Part shown: positions 7,142 to 55,924 of the stretch, one piece after another
How the letters are laid out: every line of letters starts with the position of its first letter
Position numbering within the stretch: the first letter of the stretch is position 1
Origin: a virus
Lineage: Duplodnaviria; Caudoviricetes
IMG/VR virus record: IMGVR_UViG_3300037067_027643
Coordinates: 192,001 to 256,000 of that record
Length of the DNA: 64,000 bases
Reading direction: 5' to 3' (one strand)
Made by a program: the position numbers and the translations under genes
The notes under the pieces: model-generated
Databases searched by the model: none
What the model was told of the DNA's origin: nothing
Seen by the model: only the letters and a program-made list of their open reading frames with translations

Positions 7142-10100
7142 TTAATCTGTTATGTTTACAAAATGTAATATATCTGTTCCATCGTAATAATTTAATCTAA
7201 ATGTTCCATCACTTTTATTATAAATTGTACAATTATAAGCTCCATATACATAAGTTGCCGATGTAAAATCTATATTATTAGGACAATATTCAATATTATT
7301 TGATTGAAAACTATCTCCAATTATATTTGAATTAAAACCATCTCTAATATTATTTGATTGAAAACTATCCCCGATTGTATTTAAATAAAAACTACTTCTA
7401 ATATTATTTACAGAGAAGCTATTTCTAATATTATTTGAATAACAACCGTCTCCAATTATATTTGAATTAAAATACTCTCTAATATTATTTGATTGAAAAC
7501 TATTTCCGATTGTATTTGAATAGAAGCTATAACCAAATATATTTGTATTTCCAATTGTATTCGATTGAAAACTATCACCAATCGTATTCGATTGAAAACT
7601 ATCACCAATTACGTTTGATTGAAAAAGTCTTCCAATATTATTTGATTGAAAAGTATCACCAATTACATTTGAATAACAACTAATTCTAATTGTATTTGAA
7701 TAACAACTATCACCAATTGTAATAGTATAACCATCAGATTTAATATTATTTGAATAGCAAGTACTTCCAAAAACAATATTATTTAGTCTTGAATAGTATC
7801 CATTATTGTCAAAGCTAATTATATTAATATGATTATCATAACAATATTCATCGTAAGGTGTAAATGTATAATAATCTAATGGGTCACTCATTGATAGATT
7901 AGTTGTTGTAATATCACCGACACTAAATTCACTTGGTGTAGATGTCCAACTATAGTTTTTAAAATTATTTAACCAAAATTGCCAATTAACAGCATCGGAA
8001 CTAGGATCTGCAATTGATTCACTGTGAGTTGTTTTTGCTTTGTATAAATAATCATTACTTCCTGATACTATATCTTTAGCTGTATAACTACCGGATGAAA
8101 CCCATCCTGTAGCATTTACTTTCCATCTTCTAAAAATTATATTTCTAAAATCATAATAGCATTCATTATTTCGAATAGTATCCTTACGATATGTAATTAA
8201 TCCTTTGAATCCATTTACAGGCAATAATTCCGGAGTTATTAAATTCCAACTTGTTCCAGAAAACATATATGTATTTGTATTACTTGTAACATACGCATAT
8301 TCATTTATAGACGCAGATGCATAAGTCCAATTACTGCTAATATATGTTGTTATTTGATGTATATGAGTATTCCAAGGCGATGGAGATCCTGGTAATATTA
8401 CTACAGAATAACCTTCTGGTGGACCCAGTGGAATTGAATTATTAATATCATCAACTGTATAAGTTGGCGGAGGAACACCTACTCCAAAGAAAGCAATATC
8501 TCTTGTATCTCCACCAGTAATATCATAATAAATTGTATCTTGTGGATATACGGTAGAAATCGCAGTTTTATCAATAGAACCAGTCGATATAGAAAATACA
8601 ACTAACGGTTCAATACTTCCGGTATGTATGTCACTTGTAATTGTATTACCATCTAATATATTATGTACTGTTTGATAATCTGTTATTTTATAATGTTTTC
8701 CGGTTGTTAATGTTTGATTGTAAATTGATGAACTTAATTGAGAATATGTAATATTAATTAATTCGGAACTACTCATATCTAATTGATCAATTCTATAATC
8801 AAAACTACTGCTATCACTAACATAAGATTGCGAATATATATTAAAATCAGCACTCAATAAATAATTGCTCTGTGAAAGATATGTATTATTTATATTTGTA
8901 TTAAAAGAAGAACTATCTAAAGAGTAATTTGTTTCGAATGTATATAATGATTGTGAACTTGCAAAGCTGGATGTATTTAAAAATATCAATCCATTTTCTG
9001 CTGGGTTTACTTGTGGAATATAATTAGCACTTGAAGAATAACTATTAGGAACATCTAATAAATTTGTAAAATATGTAGATCCAGCACTACTTGATGGAGG
9101 TGATCCAATCCATTTACTACCAGAAACACTTAATACATATCCATTTGGATAAACACCTAAATCAATTACATTATTTAAATCTCCAAGATTAACAGGAATA
9201 CTGCTACTAAGATTAACATCGGTAATATAACAGCTTTGACTTAATAAATATACAGAACTCGATGTATTTAATTGAGTATTATAAAATGATGTTGATACAG
9301 AACTACTTAAATTGGTAACAGATGTATAAACACTACTTGATAAACTCGTTATATTACTATTAGTTGTATTTATTCTGCTGTTAAAGCTACTTGATATGTT
9401 GGTTTGATTTAATTCGTATGTATAGAAACTACTAGAATAAACATATTTAGTATCTTCAACAAATACTGTTTTATCACTTCCGGAATTAACCATCAAAAGA
9501 ACAGAATAATTTGGACTTTGTGACTTAACATCTAAATAACTAGTGGGGCAATCAGTTAATTCTAGTAATGTAGTTGCCCCACTTAAAGCACTACTTGTTA
9601 TATGTGATAAACTTTCAGAAAAACTAGAACTTAAATTATAAACAGTTGTATATTCACTTGCACTTAAATTATAAATTGAGGTATAAACACTCTGCGAATA
9701 AGAAGCAGTCCAGGTATTAACGCTTTCAGAATGAATATTTAAATAACCAATGTTTGTATTATTACTGGCTGTATATTGATTTATTAACTGTTCATAACTA
9801 TTAACAGATGATGTAAATTGATTAAATGTATTAGTATTGGCAAAGCTTGAAGTTGATATAAAATCTATTTTGGAACCACTTATCTGAAGTATTTTTCCAT
9901 CTTGTCCGGTATAAGAATTATTAGCAACATCATTTAAATTGATAAATGATAATAAAGTATTTAAACTTCCTGTTGATATGTTTTCCCAATTAAAGGTAGA
10001 AGAATTATAAGCTAGTAAATTGAAATTTCCAGGTGTGGTTATTGTAACATCTAAAAGATTTGGTAAATTATCTGCATAATAAGGTAATTGACTGTATGTA

Positions 10101-48134: not shown

Positions 48135-48944
48135 ATGAACAAAGATACACTAGGTGATAGAATGAAAGACTATTACGAAAACAGAACTCGTATTAGCCTT
48201 CCAAGAAGAAGCTATACTATTATTAGAATTGATGGTAAAGCTTTTCACAGTTATACCAAAGGATTAAATCGCCCGTTTGATGATGGTTTAATCGAAGATA
48301 TGGATTCTACTACTGCTTATTTGTGTAAAAACATACAAGGAGCTAAATTTGGATACGTTCAAAGTGATGAAATTTCTATACTGCTTTGTGATTTTGAAGA
48401 CATAGGAACTCAAGCTTGGTTTGATAACAATATTCAAAAGATGTGTAGTGTATCGGCTAGTATGGCTACAAGTAAATTTAATCAACTAAGATTGATGAGA
48501 ACAGCTAAATGTGGATTCGATTTGTTAAATGATTGTAAATCTCAAATATTTGCTATTCCATTAATTCATGATATGTGTAATAAAAAATTAGCAGAATTTG
48601 ATAGTCGAGTATTTCAAATACCATCCAGTATCGAAGTTGAAAATTATTTTATCTGGAGACAACAAGATGCTACTAGGAACAGTATTCAATCTGTAGCACA
48701 ATCATTGTATAGTCACAAAGAACTAAATAATAAAAATTGTGATCAGCTACAAGAAATGATATTTCAAAAAGGCATTAATTGGAATGATTATCCAAGTAAA
48801 TATAAAAGAGGTAGAATAATTAGTAAGGAAACATATACCAAAGATAATACTAACAGAAGTAGATGGACAAATATAAACAACAATGAAATACCAATATTTA
48901 CACAAGAAAGAGAATTTATTAGTAATTTAATCCCAAAGATATGA
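48135..48944 (+). CDS. thg1: tRNA(His) guanylyltransferase Thg1 / Thg1-like protein
   Basis: LGDRMKDYYE, RIDGKAFHSYT, YVQSDEISIL, FDSRVF, WRQQDATRNSIQ, GINWNDYP and KRG motifs. Confidence 0.92.
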   Translation: MNKDTLGDRMKDYYENRTRISLPRRSYTIIRIDGKAFHSYTKGLNRPFDDGLIEDMDSTTAYLCKNIQGAKFGYVQSDEISILLCDFEDIGTQAWFDNNIQKMCSVSASMATSKFNQLRLMRTAKCGFDLLNDCKSQIFAIPLIHDMCNKKLAEFDSRVFQIPSSIEVENYFIWRQQDATRNSIQSVAQSLYSHKELNNKNCDQLQEMIFQKGINWNDYPSKYKRGRIISKETYTKDNTNRSRWTNINNNEIPIFTQEREFISNLIPKI

Positions 48945-49703: not shown

Positions 49704-49735
49704 TTTGGTAATATAAATTATTTTTACTAATTTTG
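49704..49735 (+). promoter_or_regulatory. Bacteroidetes-type promoter
   Basis: TTTG-N20-TAATTTTG. Confidence 0.7.
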
Positions 49736-49761
49736 TATTGTTAAATTTAAAGTATGTTAAT

Positions 49762-50496
49762 ATGACAACAATAATTATATGTTTATTAATTCCATTAATT
49801 CTAGTATGTTTAATTATTCTTTTAAATAATACATCTACTAAATCTAAACAGTCGATTATTAAAAAAATTAATAACCACTCAAATTTAAAATATGAATATG
49901 AATTATTAGAATATAATCTAAAATTAAATAATAACATTATTCATAAAAGAATATATGATAAATTTAGAAACGGGTTAATGAAAATTATAGAAGAAGAAAA
50001 TATTAAATTTACCGAATTAGATTCTATATATGAACTTAACAATGTTACAGAAGAACAAGTATTAAATGATATAAATATAAAAAATAACTTAGCATGTGGA
50101 TTATACATATATATTTCTAAAGAAAAATTAAAAAAGTATGATTTGATTGATTTAGATTGGTATAACAGAAAGTATCCACAAATAAAAGTTGAAAATACTG
50201 TTATTGATGATGATTTATCTTATGGAAATGAATTAATTATTGCACATGAACTTGGACATCATTTTTGTATTGCACAATTAAATGATAAAAGTGAAGAAGG
50301 TGCAGATTATTATGTACTGACATTAGCACAGAAAATTTTAACCCCATTAGAAATATATACTATTAGTATACTACTTCGTATTAAATGCAAATTAACTAGT
50401 GAAGAATTCGAAAATATGTATAATTTAGATGATATTGTATCATTTGATAAGTTTAAAGAAGTTAATGGAGATATCTATAAACTATTTGAAAATTAA
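49762..50496 (+). CDS. Membrane-anchored HExxH metallopeptidase (ImmA/IrrE-like)
   Basis: N-terminal TM helix, IAHELGHH...EEGADYY. The ATG at 49762 is preferred over the TTG at 49738. Confidence 0.65.
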   Translation: MTTIIICLLIPLILVCLIILLNNTSTKSKQSIIKKINNHSNLKYEYELLEYNLKLNNNIIHKRIYDKFRNGLMKIIEEENIKFTELDSIYELNNVTEEQVLNDINIKNNLACGLYIYISKEKLKKYDLIDLDWYNRKYPQIKVENTVIDDDLSYGNELIIAHELGHHFCIAQLNDKSEEGADYYVLTLAQKILTPLEIYTISILLRIKCKLTSEEFENMYNLDDIVSFDKFKEVNGDIYKLFEN

Positions 50497-51066
50497 ATAA
50501 ACATGGAAAATATTTATAAACCTATTATGAAATCAGTAATTGATTTTTTATTGCTAAATGGATTTACTTGTATAGAGCCAAATTCATATATTAATAATTA
50601 TTGTAATATTATTATAAACGAAGAATATTATACTATTATTGATAAAAATAACGAGGTAATGATTAGTAGAGACGTAAATATTTATTGGTTGATTGGATGT
50701 CTTACTTATTATGGTTACATGGATAAAAATTACAAACAATTAGATTAAGAATAAATAATATGAAAACATTTAAACAAAAATTAGGCAAAACAATAGCTAA
50801 ATATAAATGGCTACAATTTACAAGAGAAGATCAAGTATTTGGTAGTCCAGCAGATTTATATTATGAATTATATAATAGTAAAGGTATAGCAGAATGTTTT
50901 ATGTTAATAGATGATGGTGATTGCATAGGAGAAGAATGTGCGATTCATATATGTTGTTTATCTACAAATAAAAGAGGAAAAGTTAAATATAATTTTAAAG
51001 GAAAGATATTTGAAGGTCGTATATGTTCTAAAAAAGATTTTAAATATTTAATGAAATTTTTAGGAT

Positions 51067-51582
51067 TTGAAAAAATATATTAATAGTATGAAAAATATTA
51101 AAAACATATTAACAATCATCAATACTACTAATAATTTTAAACAAAAATTTTTTATATATTTAAGGTTATTTATTTCATTTGTACAATTTCCAGCATTTGT
51201 ATTTCATGAATTATGCCATAGCTTATTATTGATATTTTGTACTGATATAAAAATAAAGGAATATAATTTTTTAAAAATTAATAACAACAATAAAAATTTA
51301 CAAACATACGGTTTACGTATTAGCTATAATAGTACAAAGAAAGTTGGATTACTTAGTTCTGCTATGCCATTAATTGGTTGGTTAGTGTTATTTATTATTT
51401 CTTTGATTAATTGTTATTGGTTGATTTTAATATATTGTATTATTAGCTTTCGTATGTTTTATTTGAGTTCTGTAGATATTGAAAGTATGGATAATTGTGG
51501 TTGTGATAAAAGATTAACTAAAATTTTAAAATATATTAATACGAACATACAAAAATTATCAAATAAATATTATATAATATGA
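51067..51582 (+). CDS. Membrane zinc metalloprotease-like protein (DUF3267/M50-like)
   Basis: VFHELCH in a hydrophobic segment, SAMPL and SSVD; the true start may be 51088. Confidence 0.55.
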   Translation: MKKYINSMKNIKNILTIINTTNNFKQKFFIYLRLFISFVQFPAFVFHELCHSLLLIFCTDIKIKEYNFLKINNNNKNLQTYGLRISYNSTKKVGLLSSAMPLIGWLVLFIISLINCYWLILIYCIISFRMFYLSSVDIESMDNCGCDKRLTKILKYINTNIQKLSNKYYII

Positions 51583-52018
51583 AGCATCAAGATAAATCAA
51601 TAAACCTTAAATCTACAGAAAAGGAATTAAGAGAATTATATAAACGGTTTGGATTGAAACAATGGATTCCTAAATTATCAAAAGAGGAAATATTGATAGA
51701 TTTATATAACTATATATGTGGAGATAAATCAATGTTAGAGGAATTGGTAGAACATTTAGAAACTATTCAAAGTAAATTAAATAAAGAGTATCCAAACATT
51801 TGGGTTGGAGAATTATAAAATATTATGAAAACATTTATATTATGTTCTGATACAAATTACGATTTATCTGTTACAATTGTTAATGCAGAATCAGAAGAAG
51901 AAGTTAGAAATTTAGTTAAAGATAATAAATATGTTTGGCTAGGTTATAATATTAACGAAATAGATACTAAAACAAAAGGAATTGTATTTCAAGATCCTAT
52001 TGATAATTAAAAAATAAA

Positions 52019-52579
52019 ATGGAAAAATATATATTCTTAGATATTGATGGAGTAATAGCAACACCAAAAACTATAATTGATTGTGGTTGGGGTTTAACTC
52101 CTATTTGTCAAGAGAATTTAGGATTTATTTTAAAAGAAACAAATGCTAAAATCGTAATAAGTTCTAGTTGGAGACTAAATACAGTTGAAGAAACAGTTAA
52201 ATATATGGACGAACAAGGATTTTTATTTTGTGATTCTATTGTTGGAGTAACTATAAGAGCTTATCACTATATTCAAAAAGGTGTACATTTAGGAATTCCA
52301 AGAGGAGTAGAAATCAAACAATATATAGATACCCATTTAAAATATCCATGGTATGCTTATCCTGAAAGAGATAATGAGTTTAAATTGTATAGAGAAGATG
52401 GAACATTTTTAATGATGAGACATCAAGAACTTGGTAAGGATTATAACTATTGTATATTAGATGATGATACAGATTTTTTATTAGAACATAAAAATTATTT
52501 CGTACAATGTAATCCAAACGTAGGTTTAACTAAAAGTAAAGCATTAAAAGCAATTAAAATATTGAACAATGGAAATTAA
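52019..52579 (+). CDS. HAD phosphatase of the Swiss-Army-knife RNA-repair type
   Basis: IFLDIDGVI, KIVISSSWR, RGVEIKQY, YCILDDDTDFL and GLT motifs. Confidence 0.85.
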   Translation: MEKYIFLDIDGVIATPKTIIDCGWGLTPICQENLGFILKETNAKIVISSSWRLNTVEETVKYMDEQGFLFCDSIVGVTIRAYHYIQKGVHLGIPRGVEIKQYIDTHLKYPWYAYPERDNEFKLYREDGTFLMMRHQELGKDYNYCILDDDTDFLLEHKNYFVQCNPNVGLTKSKALKAIKILNNGN

Positions 52580-53427
52580 AGACGAATATACTTATACAAC
52601 AATTAACTATGATGTTATTCAAGGTAATGATAAAATTATTAAATGTATAAATTCTTGTATATCAAATGTTCAGTTAGATAGTGTAGAAAGAATGATTAAT
52701 AATTTCAATAATATTTATAAATGTGATGATATATCAATTTTGTATTTATTTAGGTTAGTGTACTCAAAAAGGAAAAAATTAAAAACATATTAGATGAAAA
52801 AAGAAAGTAAAACAATTTATATAGTAATGGGATCAACTGGTAATATATTACATGAAAATTGGTTTAAATATTCAGTAAAAGCATTTTATGATCAAGAAGA
52901 AGCTGATAAATATATTGAAAAATATACAAAAATAGTTAATATAGCTAAAGAATATTTTAGTTATTTGTATAGTAATGAATATTATACAAATAGATATACC
53001 GATTTTGAATTTGATAGAGATAATATTTACTTCTATAAATATAATAAGTGGATAGAATTTGACAAATCATTTGTTCAGGAAATTGAATTAATTTAATAAT
53101 AAATAATATGAAAGAAACAAAATTTTACAAAGATGAACTTAATGAACATTATTACAAAGAAACCGATAATTTAATTTTACATATTTTTGTATGTAGAGAA
53201 GCAAGAGATACAAAAGAATTTACATACGATGGTGATTTTATGATATTATGTCCTCATAATCTAAATGATCGGTGTATTAATAATGTACCAGAACTACCAA
53301 CAGATAAAAAACTTAAAGAAATTACTAAAGAAGAATTTGATACAGTAGTAAAACAGGTGATATTTGATTTGGAATTATATAAATATATTAAATAAAAACA
53401 ATTATAAACATTTAAAAATTAAAAAAC

Positions 53428-53901
53428 ATGACAACAACATTCTCAAAAATTAAATTACACAGTTCAGTAGATCTAATTACCAATTCATCCACAGTTATAT
53501 TCACTTATAGCGGAGGTAGTTTATCAGCAGTAAAAGACCTAGTAAACGAAATGTTAAAAGTATTTGGAAAGACAGAAACATTTGATGACATATTTTATGC
53601 TGATGTATTTTGTGAAGATCTTGATACATACTTAGAAGATGATTTATATTCAAATTTTATAGAAGAAAATGAAAATGAAGCGGTAAGTGATATTAAAGTA
53701 TTAGTAGATGATATTTTAACAGGTAAGGTAGAAAGACCAAAATGGATGGATGAAGTAGAGGAAGAAGAAAGTAGATGTGATTATTTTACTCCAGAAACAG
53801 CTTTATATCTTAAAGCAAAAGATGAAAAATATAACGAATTGGCAAATAAATTATTAAAATATTTAAATTCACAAACTCATGAAGCAACAAGAGATGGCTA
53901 A
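53428..53901 (+). CDS. ITNSS-motif protein 1
   Basis: N-terminal KLHSSVDLITNSSTVIF; acidic body. Confidence 0.75.
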   Translation: MTTTFSKIKLHSSVDLITNSSTVIFTYSGGSLSAVKDLVNEMLKVFGKTETFDDIFYADVFCEDLDTYLEDDLYSNFIEENENEAVSDIKVLVDDILTGKVERPKWMDEVEEEESRCDYFTPETALYLKAKDEKYNELANKLLKYLNSQTHEATRDG

Positions 53902-54376
53902 AAATAAAAAAGTAATATTCGTAATCCAACCTCAATCAATGGTTGATATTATTACGAACAGTTCTTCAGAATTATTTGTTTTTGAAGGCAAAGAAAAACA
54001 AGTGATAGAAGAAATGATTAAAGATGTTTATCCAGATTACTTAAATGAATATGAACAACTTGTATCAATAAATGATATTAGTGACGATAATTTATATACA
54101 TATTTAATTTATAAATATTGGGTTTACGATATTCATGATAATTTATATCTATCAAAAGAATTCAATATCGACCCAAAAATTTTATATTCTAATTGGGATA
54201 ATAAAAATACAGATAAGTATTGGTATCCACAATTAAGTAGTGAAGGTTGTAGATTAATAAAAGATAAAATTGATCCCAACAGACAGATGTATTTTCTTTT
54301 TAGTAAATATGACAATCCAGAATATGAATATCAAGAACTGTTAGAAAATATTGGAACTAGATATCATTTAGGTTAA
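53894..54376 (+). CDS. ITNSS-motif protein 2
   Basis: QPQSMVDIITNSSSELF; the likely start is ATG 53894, overlapping the upstream stop. Confidence 0.75.
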   Translation: MAKNKKVIFVIQPQSMVDIITNSSSELFVFEGKEKQVIEEMIKDVYPDYLNEYEQLVSINDISDDNLYTYLIYKYWVYDIHDNLYLSKEFNIDPKILYSNWDNKNTDKYWYPQLSSEGCRLIKDKIDPNRQMYFLFSKYDNPEYEYQELLENIGTRYHLG

Positions 54377-54397
54377 TAATTATAAATATATAAAATT

Positions 54398-54727
54398 ATG
54401 AAAAAAGAAAAATTAATATTTATAAAATTGCATTCATTTGTTGATTTAATAACAAATAGTTCAACAGAATTGTATGTAGTAGATAGTTCTAAATCGGAAG
54501 GTATTTTAAAAGAAATATTCGATTTAATTATTAAAGAAGGTAATTCTGGTTATGATGAAACTAAAATAGAATGTTTAAAAAATTATAAATATAAAAGTGA
54601 TTATATTATTCCAGAAGATTTAGATCAAAATACAGTTTTTATTTGTAATATCGATCGTGGAAATATTATTTTAATGAAAATCATAGAAAAATATTTTACA
54701 ACAATTAATTTAAAATATAATGGATAA
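54398..54727 (+). CDS. ITNSS-motif protein 3
   Basis: KLHSFVDLITNSSTELY. Confidence 0.75.
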   Translation: MKKEKLIFIKLHSFVDLITNSSTELYVVDSSKSEGILKEIFDLIIKEGNSGYDETKIECLKNYKYKSDYIIPEDLDQNTVFICNIDRGNIILMKIIEKYFTTINLKYNG

Positions 54728-55001
54728 AATAACAATAAGTAAGCCACATAGTTCTGTTGATTTAATAACCAACAGCTCTACAGTCATTTTTACAGTATCA
54801 AATAGTTATGTAAATATGATACAAGATCTAATAAGACATAGATGTCAAACATCGGATGATATGGAATGGTTTGACAAATGGTTAACGGTTATAGAAAACG
54901 AAGACGGTAACATTGAAATAGAATCATTTATAAACGATCCAGATTGGTTTTGTGATTTTATTAATGATAATTTCAATGTAATTAATGAATGGTTTAGTTG
55001 A
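54720..55001 (+). CDS. ITNSS-motif protein 4
   Basis: KPHSSVDLITNSSTVIF. Confidence 0.75.
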   Translation: MDKITISKPHSSVDLITNSSTVIFTVSNSYVNMIQDLIRHRCQTSDDMEWFDKWLTVIENEDGNIEIESFINDPDWFCDFINDNFNVINEWFS

Positions 55002-55009
55002 AAATTAAA

Positions 55010-55041
55010 TTTGTTTAAATAAATAATATTACTTACTTTTG
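55010..55041 (+). promoter_or_regulatory. Bacteroidetes-type promoter for the radical SAM gene
   Basis: TTTG-N20-TACTTTTG. Confidence 0.65.
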
Positions 55042-55057
55042 TAAAAATAAATAAAAC

Positions 55058-55924
55058 ATGATTAAAACAAGAATAGAACCAGAAGCGAATTATCGTGCTA
55101 TTTGGTGTAATGGTAAAACACTTAGATTTGCAATAGATCCAAAGAAGCCAATTACAGAATTAAAGTACCCAGAATTTTTTGATATAATGACAACTTCCTG
55201 TTGTTCAGGGTTTTGCAAAGAATGTTATATGGATAGTTTCCCGCAACCACATTATGAAAATATCATAGAAAAAACAAGAACATTTTTTGATAATATTCCA
55301 AAAGAACATTTACCATTTCAAGTTGCACTTGGTGGAGGAGAACCAACAAGTCATCCTGATTTTATTGAACTACTTAGAGTATTAAAGGAAGAATATGATA
55401 TCTGTCCTAACTATACTACAAATGGAATGTTTTGTGATTATAAAGAAGCTATATCATCTCAAAATGAAATTGATATATTAGAAGCAACTAAAAAATATTG
55501 TGGTGGAGTAGCAGTTAGTTGTCATCCGCATTTAAAAGATTATTGGGAGAGAGCTGCTAAACAATTTATACATTATGGTATAAAACTTAATTTTCATATC
55601 ATTATATCAGATCGAGAATCAATTGACAACTTTGTAGAAATATATAATGAATGGAAAGATCGAGTTGATTACTTTGTTTTGTTACCCTACGGAGTACAAG
55701 GAAGAGCTAAACAAAAAGAAATAGATTGGGAATATTTAGTAGAACAACTTCCAGAAGAACAATCTAAAATAGCGTTTGGTGCTAACTTTTATCCATATTT
55801 ACTTAAAGGAGGACATAATATTAAAGTGTGCTTGTATGAACCAGAAATAATGAGTAAATTTTTAGATTTAAAAGATATGAAACTTTATCCAAGTTCGTTT
55901 AATTTAACAGAAATAAAACAATGA
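55058..55924 (+). CDS. Radical SAM enzyme
   Basis: C49-x3-C53-x2-C56 (CSGFCKEC), QVALGGGEP and NYTTNG; no C-terminal SPASM cysteines. Confidence 0.9.
   Translation: MIKTRIEPEANYRAIWCNGKTLRFAIDPKKPITELKYPEFFDIMTTSCCSGFCKECYMDSFPQPHYENIIEKTRTFFDNIPKEHLPFQVALGGGEPTSHPDFIELLRVLKEEYDICPNYTTNGMFCDYKEAISSQNEIDILEATKKYCGGVAVSCHPHLKDYWERAAKQFIHYGIKLNFHIIISDRESIDNFVEIYNEWKDRVDYFVLLPYGVQGRAKQKEIDWEYLVEQLPEEQSKIAFGANFYPYLLKGGHNIKVCLYEPEIMSKFLDLKDMKLYPSSFNLTEIKQ

Follow-up and report, generated by a model that had tools for sequence, protein, structure and literature searches.

A radical-SAM enzyme and N-terminally tagged proteins form a widespread, uncharacterised phage module

Background

Why should a phage keep a radical S-adenosylmethionine (SAM) enzyme directly behind a row of small genes whose products seem to share only a short N-terminal motif? 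The question is raised by virus record IMGVR_UViG_3300037067_027643 (Caudoviricetes), 285,744 bp long, of which positions 192001-256000 are the 64,000-nucleotide window analysed here. An initial annotation, made from the letters of the window, pointed out four tandem open reading frames (ORFs) carrying [HQ]S-x-V-D-[LI]-ITNSS[TS] near their N-termini, followed by a radical-SAM gene, and suggested a protein-modification system. We argue that a single, dedicated radical-SAM enzyme uses the tag as its handle on these proteins. This is well supported by linkage in both directions, by a predicted complex at the enzyme barrel and by fusions in a sister clade. The pair is a real, widespread and uncharacterised phage module, and it is probably an undescribed protein-modification system. 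The genes in question, in window coordinates, are these:

53428..53901, plus strand: tagged protein 1, 157 aa, acidic, class A, ending in RDG; tag His11-Thr22 at 53458-53493
53894..54376, plus strand: tagged protein 2, 160 aa, class B, ending in HLG; tag Gln14-Ser25 at 53933-53968
54398..54727, plus strand: tagged protein 3, 109 aa, minor subfamily, ending in YNG; tag at 54431-54466
54720..55001, plus strand: tagged protein 4, 93 aa, minor subfamily, its start overlapping the stop of gene 3; tag at 54747-54782
55058..55924, plus strand: radical-SAM enzyme, 288 aa, C49-x3-C53-x2-C56, PF04055, no SPASM or twitch domain

The start of gene 2 likewise overlaps the stop of gene 1, and an alternative ATG at 53879 would give a protein of 165 aa. 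Both the ORF calls and a profile of the tag bear out the four reading frames and the places of their motifs. The profile scores the four proteins at 35-51 bits and the next best protein of the whole genome at 11.9 bits, so the sharing of the motif is not chance. These four genes hold the only copies of the tag in the genome.

Linkage of the tag and the enzyme

Is the neighbourhood of the tag and the enzyme an accident of one genome? Loci were fetched by the enzyme (165) and by the tags (158), and the enzyme loci were collapsed at 85% identity with at least 3 kb of flank required on both sides. All 82 of the resulting non-redundant, well-flanked loci carry tagged genes, from one to seven each, with 205 of these genes upstream and 18 downstream of the enzyme. 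In the other direction the enzyme lies within 10 kb in 144 of the 158 tag-fetched loci, a set that is redundant. Five of the 14 misses have the enzyme elsewhere on the same contig, most of the others are cut by a contig end or belong to an incomplete record, and one record that is 60% complete is without the enzyme. A search with a motif profile for just this co-location had been named beforehand as the test of the idea, and the two counts are its outcome; the result that would have spoken against it, tagged proteins occurring for the most part away from the enzyme, did not come about. The enzyme is accompanied by tagged genes in more than 100 uncultured phage contigs.

In a census of the neighbours of 136 enzyme loci, tags were present at 121, while every other family stayed at 11 or fewer. 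No recurrent protease, transporter, kinase, nucleotide gene or glycyl-radical enzyme turned up in it, so that nucleotide modification, one of the roles suggested at first, gains no support from a neighbouring gene. Since the tags are the sole recurrent neighbours, we regard the module as having two parts.

Selection on the tag

Across 279 distinct proteins the tag reads hydrophobic-x-I-x-I-[HQ]-S98-x-x-D92-x-I92-T98-N100-S100-S100-[TS]-[EV]-[IL]-[FY], the numbers being percentages; the asparagine and the two serines that follow it are invariant at 100% and the threonine stands at 98%. Synonymous codon differences between the four copies had been taken as a sign of selection on the peptide, and the larger family supports this. 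Among 359 relatives the first serine after the asparagine is written 172 times with an AGY codon and 187 times with a TCN codon. An invariant serine whose codons switch between these classes must have been selected repeatedly as serine, that is, at the level of the peptide, and the switching rules out an origin of the motif as a DNA repeat.

The tagged proteins have a median length of 147 aa and range from 90 to 280 aa. No family in Pfam, PHROGs, NCBIfam or PADLOC fits the four of the window, and none of 66 tagged members searched has a Pfam family. Searches of PDB sequences and with Foldseek gave nothing significant for the tagged proteins, and their matches in BFVD and the Atlas are uncharacterised phage proteins only. 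Two odd chains deserve mention. One chain of 332 aa (P0161) combines two tagged proteins, the one of class A and the other of class B. At another fetched locus (L275:6225-6692) a tagged N-terminus is joined to the C-terminal part of the enzyme, which is probably a deletion or a misassembly.

The enzyme

The initial annotation called the last gene a CxxxCxxC radical-SAM enzyme without a SPASM domain, and this stands. The match to PF04055 is marginal (30 bits against a cut-off of 29.5), but the cluster cysteines C49, C53 and C56 are 97-100% conserved, G94-E95 of the GGE motif are conserved as well, and by these marks the enzyme belongs to the radical SAM superfamily. There is no SPASM match; 76 of 131 sequences have no cysteine in their last 80 residues, and none is conserved there. 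Radical-SAM epimerases of the EpeE/PoyD type have a conserved cysteine as hydrogen-atom donor. Two cysteines elsewhere in our enzyme, C148 (109 of 130 sequences) and C155 (76 of 130), are candidates, though neither is shared with the sister clades discussed below; another donor is possible.

About 35 residues precede the barrel. They form a three-strand sheet in which K20, T21 and R23 are 91-97% conserved. The enzyme matches no PqqD family or other family of the RiPP recognition element (RRE; RiPP, ribosomally synthesised and post-translationally modified peptide), and the three helices and three strands of a full RRE are not found. The extension is indeed too short for a full RRE, as had been noted, but these same 35 residues are predicted to be the leader-binding part.

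The enzyme falls far below every NCBIfam cut-off; with the models for the glycyl-radical activases PflA and NrdG it scores 16 bits, where 232 and 126 would be needed. The PDB holds no close solved relative. Its homologues number 1056 at E<=1e-20, the Atlas clusters of the enzyme are 96-100% viral, and GTDB genomes give five matches to the clade of enzymes that goes with ITNSS tags, all of them contigs of metagenome-assembled genomes. No close relative of this clade was found in cultured phage records.

Could the enzyme instead make a toxic or antiviral small molecule, as viperins do, with the tagged proteins blocking its active site in the manner of a pseudo-substrate, as inhibitors or regulators? 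It has a weak match to the PADLOC pVip model (25 bits, E 2e-6) and weak viperin-like sequence matches in the PDB, limited to the SAM-binding stretch; like viperins it lacks an auxiliary cluster, and the tagged gene found at every well-flanked enzyme locus would suit a constant inhibitor. But the NCBIfam viperin model gives 15.1 bits against a cut-off of 180, no kinase or nucleotide gene co-occurs, one to seven divergent paralogues per enzyme are hard to explain for an inhibitor, and the enzyme has what appears to be a conserved sheet dedicated to leader binding. We consider this explanation improbable.

The gene has been invaded repeatedly by LAGLIDADG inteins, either right after the third cluster cysteine or ahead of GGGEP, and in several gut phages it is split after the QVAIG motif (examples of inteins and splits are L037:5293, L034:4440, L052:4392, L272:11206, P0114 and P0271-P0282). 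Repeated inteins and splits are a sign of a highly conserved gene. Nearly all long homologues contain inteins, which as evidence is weak. A further protein (P0283) joins a DNA-methyltransferase domain to a distant member of the enzyme family with a cysteine-rich tail.

The bodies behind the tag

The first reading of the window saw no similarity between the four proteins after the motif. For pairwise BLAST of the four tails that is right, but at the level of families it is not, for each of the four has orthologues elsewhere along its full length and the main subfamilies are homologous. The tail of protein 1 matches 87 relatives in subfamilies 0 and 1 and that of protein 2 matches 30 relatives in subfamily 3. 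Profiles built from tails only link subfamilies 0 and 1 at 99% over 116 columns, 1 and 2 at 87% over 104 columns, and 2 and 3 at 73%. The minor subfamilies of proteins 3 and 4, which have 6 and 5 full-length relatives, show no link to the others by this comparison. The idea that the bodies are unrelated carriers therefore has to be given up: by profiles and by fold model, the main subfamilies share what appears to be a ferredoxin-like core with a variable insert.

AlphaFold2 models protein 1 with a predicted local distance difference test (pLDDT) score of 84.5 and protein 2 with 90.2. In the model of protein 2 the core runs beta-alpha-beta-[insert]-beta-alpha-beta and resembles ACT and ferredoxin-like domains at a middling Z of 4-5.6, with a root-mean-square deviation of about 3 Å over 60-80 residues. 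In the model of protein 1 the tag strand is misplaced and Z is at most 3.8. Covariation among 235 class B sequences (S25-S137 with z 11.8, F28-L135, F30-G154) fits a ferredoxin-like topology in which strand 1 is paired with strands 3 and 4. At positions 25 and 137 the combinations are T-G 68 times, S-S 145 times and S-G once, with 34 joint changes against 45 if the two were independent. In neither monomer model is the tag itself well ordered (pLDDT 48-58 at residues 11-20), which would fit a segment meant as a substrate.

Class B proteins conserve E26 (98%), D140 (85%), N141 (99%), H158 and G160. If the fold is right, strand 1 would begin, strand 3 would end and the chain itself would finish at a common edge, and so T-N-S-S, E26, D140-N141, H158 and G160 would be brought together there. 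A profile of class B finds 2644 clusters (formed at 50% identity). Among class B proteins we saw no long fusions, which is weak evidence.

Many of the proteins end in glycine, 150 of 282 tagged proteins (53%) against 60 of 1424 neighbours. The terminal H-L-G is a property of the protein; about half of the D-G and N-G endings coincide with an overlapping start codon. We considered the last glycine as a ubiquitin-like or glycyl-radical site and rejected it: no E1, E2 or glycyl-radical enzyme co-occurs, the terminus lies outside the predicted interface, and the ending is in part an overlap artefact.

A predicted complex

Co-folding of the enzyme with a tagged protein had been proposed as a way to see whether the motif enters the active site. 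We predicted the complex of the enzyme, a 4Fe-4S cluster, SAM and protein 1 from custom alignments, and in the model the tag does contact the enzyme and appears to reach the barrel. The score is 0.80 against 0.02 for the best control. The mark used is reached by 58 of 80 solved complexes and by 2 of 110 mismatched pairs, and it is a rough guide here because custom alignments and ligands lie outside that calibration. Between runs at least 82% of contacts are the same, and the partner has a pLDDT of at least 75.

The interface has about 157 confident contacts, and on the partner side these are mostly residues 9-30 and the first helix. In the most confident pairs enzyme residue 24 meets partner residues 9, 10 and 11, residue 23 meets 11, 12 and 13, and residue 21 meets 13 and 14. 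The first half of the tag is thus predicted to lie as an antiparallel strand on residues 20-25 of the N-terminal sheet of the enzyme. Further enzyme contacts are at 40, 42, 88-92, 116-120, 149-152, 176-180, 204-209 and 235-245. Judged from the positions of the cluster and the GGE motif, these would fall on successive barrel strands and would set partner residues 14-30 against barrel-lining residues. Contact residues are at least 90% conserved at 28 of 61 positions and other residues at 27 of 227, a contrast to be read knowing that the model had seen such conservation.

The third strand of an RRE binds leader peptides in the same way (PMC7470986). The predicted geometry of strand addition would be shared; the difference is that here the helix would be supplied by the client. 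Is the module then a RiPP pathway, in which the modified T-N-S-S is cut out as a short peptide and the body is a follower or scaffold? The layout of leader plus core, the RRE-like binding geometry and the several precursors per enzyme are all what one would expect of it. Most RiPP precursors, though, are short and vary in the core; in this family, with its median of 147 aa, it is the bodies that vary and the core that never changes. The bodies are also folded, with invariant residues of their own, and no protease or transporter recurs beside them. We find a RiPP pathway very improbable.

Sister systems

In one of the fetched genomes a distant enzyme adjoins a protein with an E-T-N-S-S-S-S-H-S tag. 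The enzyme can be aligned with the ITNSS enzyme clade (97%, 204 columns), and the alignment takes in the N-terminal sheet. The same genome has ITNSS tags with an enzyme of their own, 100 kb apart, and the two pairs thus stand side by side in it. The sister family is found in the cultured phages Ma-LMM01 and RM378 and in Lak phage genomes. Of 129 sister loci fetched, 112 have tags; T-N-S-S is invariant in them and the leader is different, RxGVFE or RxGFA. The leader therefore follows the enzyme clade while the core stays fixed, and from the sequences the unit shared across clades appears to be the enzyme plus a T/S-N-S-S core.

A quick tree places the ITNSS enzymes in one long-branch group with support of 100 by the Shimodaira-Hasegawa approximate likelihood-ratio test (SH-aLRT). 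D42, Q/E88, N118, T120, S154, L209, R216 and S280 persist across all enzyme groups, three in number, and D42, Q/E88, N118, T120, L209 and S280 are also predicted contacts in the complex. The sister modules, with RxxVFETNSSSTHS tags in Ma-LMM01 (gp130 and gp128) and Lak phages and with RxGFATNSSSSHS, fused in Arash gp146c and unfused in RM378, thus have in common with the ITNSS module a homologous enzyme, its N-terminal sheet, D42 and T-N-S-S. They differ in the leader, in bodies that do not align, and in the enzyme, since the ITNSS enzymes form a group of their own. Sister bodies (GNDN...YKGN) were also compared with ITNSS bodies (DN...HLG); no hhalign pair exceeded 15%, so homology between them is not supported and the resemblance is visual only. 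A literature search found no description of the sister modules.

In 21 proteins of a sister clade the tag domain is fused to the enzyme, and one of these is gp146c of Salmonella phage Arash. The proteins of this fusion clade are about 480 aa long (L332:4452-5882, which is Arash gp146c, and L381-L412), and the Arash gene is annotated as a methyltransferase. Such fusions suit an explanation that does without modification. The tagged proteins might be exchangeable subunits or adaptors, with the unmodified tag as a docking strand and lid and the inserts recruiting host proteins or nucleotides. The large predicted interface, which includes the first helix of the client, and the folded bodies conserved as orthologue groups point the same way. 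Against this, the constant part of the tag is the polar N-S-S, kept despite differing leaders, and that is more typical of a reacting site. The segment after the strand is also predicted to contact barrel-lining residues, where it would block a second substrate. We regard adaptors as possible but doubtful.

What the enzyme may do to the tag

We lean towards a dedicated maturase without auxiliary clusters that covalently alters the asparagine or a serine of the tag, the module being one radical-SAM maturase with several folded client proteins. In a first step, K-L-H-S-x-x of the tag would add antiparallel to the third N-terminal strand of the enzyme (K20-T21-L22-R23-F24), and the first helix of the client would pack alongside, giving an RRE-like grip without the RRE helices. 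T-N-S-S would then be fed into the barrel beside SAM, with residue roles assigned from the model. Next, the 5'-deoxyadenosyl radical would abstract a hydrogen from the asparagine or from one of the two serines. The outcome could be a redox-neutral fragmentation or elimination at serine that leaves an electrophile, either a dehydroalanine or, if the backbone is cut, a new N-terminus that is an aldehyde or a keto-acyl group. Oxidising SPASM enzymes use auxiliary clusters (PMC10114670), and because this enzyme has neither such a cluster nor an extra cysteine kept throughout the clade, we favour a redox-neutral route over oxidative cross-linking or epimerisation. That the chemistry is this one in particular is a guess that we ourselves would call unlikely to be right.

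In the last step the altered residue, at the start of strand 1 and near the conserved Glu, Asp-Asn, His and C-terminal carboxylate, would complete a reactive site as formylglycine does in sulfatases, and the variable insert would give each paralogue its own target. The same residues invite another thought. Ser-Ser and Asn-Ser are known autocleavage dipeptides, and the tag might process itself at one of them through an N-to-O acyl shift of the kind known from pyruvoyl enzymes, while the radical-SAM enzyme acts elsewhere in the pathway. The conserved E, D-N, H and C-terminus of class B would adjoin the motif, as such a reaction might want. Self-processing would leave the strict linkage to the enzyme, the covariation of leader and clade, the fusions and the predicted binding all without explanation, and we give it hardly any credence.

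Several points weigh against the maturase. No equivalent of D-N or His is conserved in class A, and the C-terminal D-G of that class arises in part from overlap of ATG and stop (29 of 52), so class B is the main basis for the proposed reactive site. As for the complex, it is a model from custom alignments and ligands whose output gives no distance between tag and SAM, and since radical-SAM/peptide complexes are in the PDB, part of the score may be memory of their geometry. A tight binder may equally be a subunit or an inhibitor. In a fused protein the enzyme would have a single act of self-modification to perform, and a subunit or adaptor accounts for such fusions no less well.

Going beyond the maturase itself, we offer a more speculative version, with a low chance of being correct in full. 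Through cleavage or elimination at Asn-Ser-Ser the clade would create a protein-derived cofactor of a new type, thereby activating small ferredoxin-like enzymes or covalent effectors, with orthogonal leader/enzyme pairs in one genome. The variable inserts of the clients, a family of 2644 class B clusters, would pick host targets.

Genome setting and promoters

The window has about 24% G+C and 22 tRNA genes. Groundwater and landfill metagenomes contain its stretch, contigs from two DNA runs, one of which may be the source of the record, confirm the sequence, and no RNA dataset is among those listed as containing the stretch. Sites of the form TTTG-N19-21-TAnnTTTG occur 22 times in the window against 3.0+-1.7 in shuffles, most of them 14-60 nt ahead of genes. 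They span positions 1679-57114 (for example 21682, 35197, 46954, 49704, 55010 and 57083). We take the form to be the Bacteroidota sigma70 consensus, and on that assumption the host is probably a member of the Bacteroidota whose polymerase reads these promoters. A scan for E. coli-type promoters gave chance level only. The whole genome has 53 Bacteroidota-type sites, which mark gene arrays, and many have an extended TTTGGTA -33 element. Two concern the module:

55010..55041, plus strand: Bacteroidota sigma70-type promoter, TTTG-N20-TAnnTTTG, 17 nt upstream of the enzyme ATG
49704..49735, plus strand: nearest upstream Bacteroidota-type promoter, a motif match, followed by contiguous same-strand ORFs at 49738-55001

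The first is the promoter of its own that the initial annotation had given the enzyme, now recognised as of Bacteroidota type. The second is the likely promoter of the gene array in which the four tagged genes lie. Host-type promoters suggest that in a Bacteroidota host the module is active from an early stage of infection, and the clients may act on host targets at that stage.

A second, unrelated radical-SAM gene (287 aa) lies at whole-genome coordinates 176786-177655 and has no tagged neighbours. A putative nicotinamide phosphoribosyltransferase-like gene and a putative Thg1-like gene, both recognised by eye, and a HAD_SAK_2 RNA-repair phosphatase, by Pfam match, lie at whole-genome 152556-154046, window 48135-48944 and window 52019-52579. 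If these identities hold, the three would be NAD and RNA-repair genes of the sort typical of counter-defence. At 7299-7671 four near-identical stretches of 31 nt, spaced 81-135 nt, lie inside a long minus-strand ORF and are a coding repeat.

Significance and comparison with known systems

To our knowledge, radical-SAM enzymes that mature whole proteins are few (anaerobic sulfatase-maturating enzyme, or anSME; glycyl-radical activases; HxsB/C), and we know of no characterised phage-encoded one. The module is common in large uncultured phages, with more than 1000 enzyme clusters beside the client clusters counted above, and it offers a testable pair of enzyme and substrate with a defined 14-residue tag. 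Sister pairs in the cultured phages Ma-LMM01, RM378 and Arash make testing in vivo possible. If the tag is modified, the module would show a new radical chemistry on Asn/Ser that needs no auxiliary clusters, and how small an element for leader recognition can be. The tag could then be moved to other proteins to modify them at a chosen site, and a very large block of phage hypothetical proteins would gain a function. A literature search found no description of an ITNSS motif with a radical-SAM enzyme. The Ophion and Kaur 2020 peptide systems were considered and rejected as matches since their architectures are different.

There are two precedents for the idea as a whole, anSME (PMC10114670) and the maturation of HxsA by HxsB/HxsC in the HXS antiphage system (PMC13128918). 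As in our module, anSME/AtsB is encoded beside its client, a Ser- or Cys-type sulfatase, and uses a short N-terminal motif (PMC10114670); like anSME, our enzyme may act on serine to create a reactive residue. Our module has no SPASM or auxiliary clusters, so oxidation to formylglycine would lack its usual electron path. Its tag is T-N-S-S (within H-S-x-x-D-x-I-T-N-S-S), not C/S-x-P-x-R, and its clients are one to seven small ferredoxin-like paralogues rather than sulfatases, found almost only in phages. HXS would share with our module radical-SAM maturation of a whole protein, a His/Ser motif, a setting of conflict between phage and bacterium, and N-terminal processing (PMC13128918). It has two enzymes plus HxsD where we see one, and five HxS repeats where we see a single N-terminal tag. 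Our module lacks an export or peptidoglycan domain and is phage-encoded, and no HXS model matched it in NCBIfam or PADLOC.

The RRE-dependent RiPP maturases (CteB, SkfB, PqqE/PqqD, and TqqB and NxxcB for Thr/Asn chemistry) would share the addition of the leader to strand 3 and the delivery of the core into the barrel. They differ from our enzyme, which has only the sheet (about 35 aa), would take the helix from its client, and has no SPASM or twitch domain; its substrate would be a folded protein of 90-280 aa with an invariant core, and no protease or exporter goes with it. The glycyl-radical activases PflA and NrdG are likewise short enzymes without an auxiliary cluster that act on a partner protein, and the Joint Genome Institute (JGI) labels many homologues of our enzyme "organic radical activating enzyme". 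Here, though, no glycyl-radical enzyme is nearby, and the conserved glycine is the last residue, outside the predicted contacts. The module resembles anSME with its sulfatases or HxsB/C with HxsA, but by the criteria for each it falls outside anSME, HXS, the RRE/SPASM RiPP enzymes, the glycyl-radical activases and the viperins.

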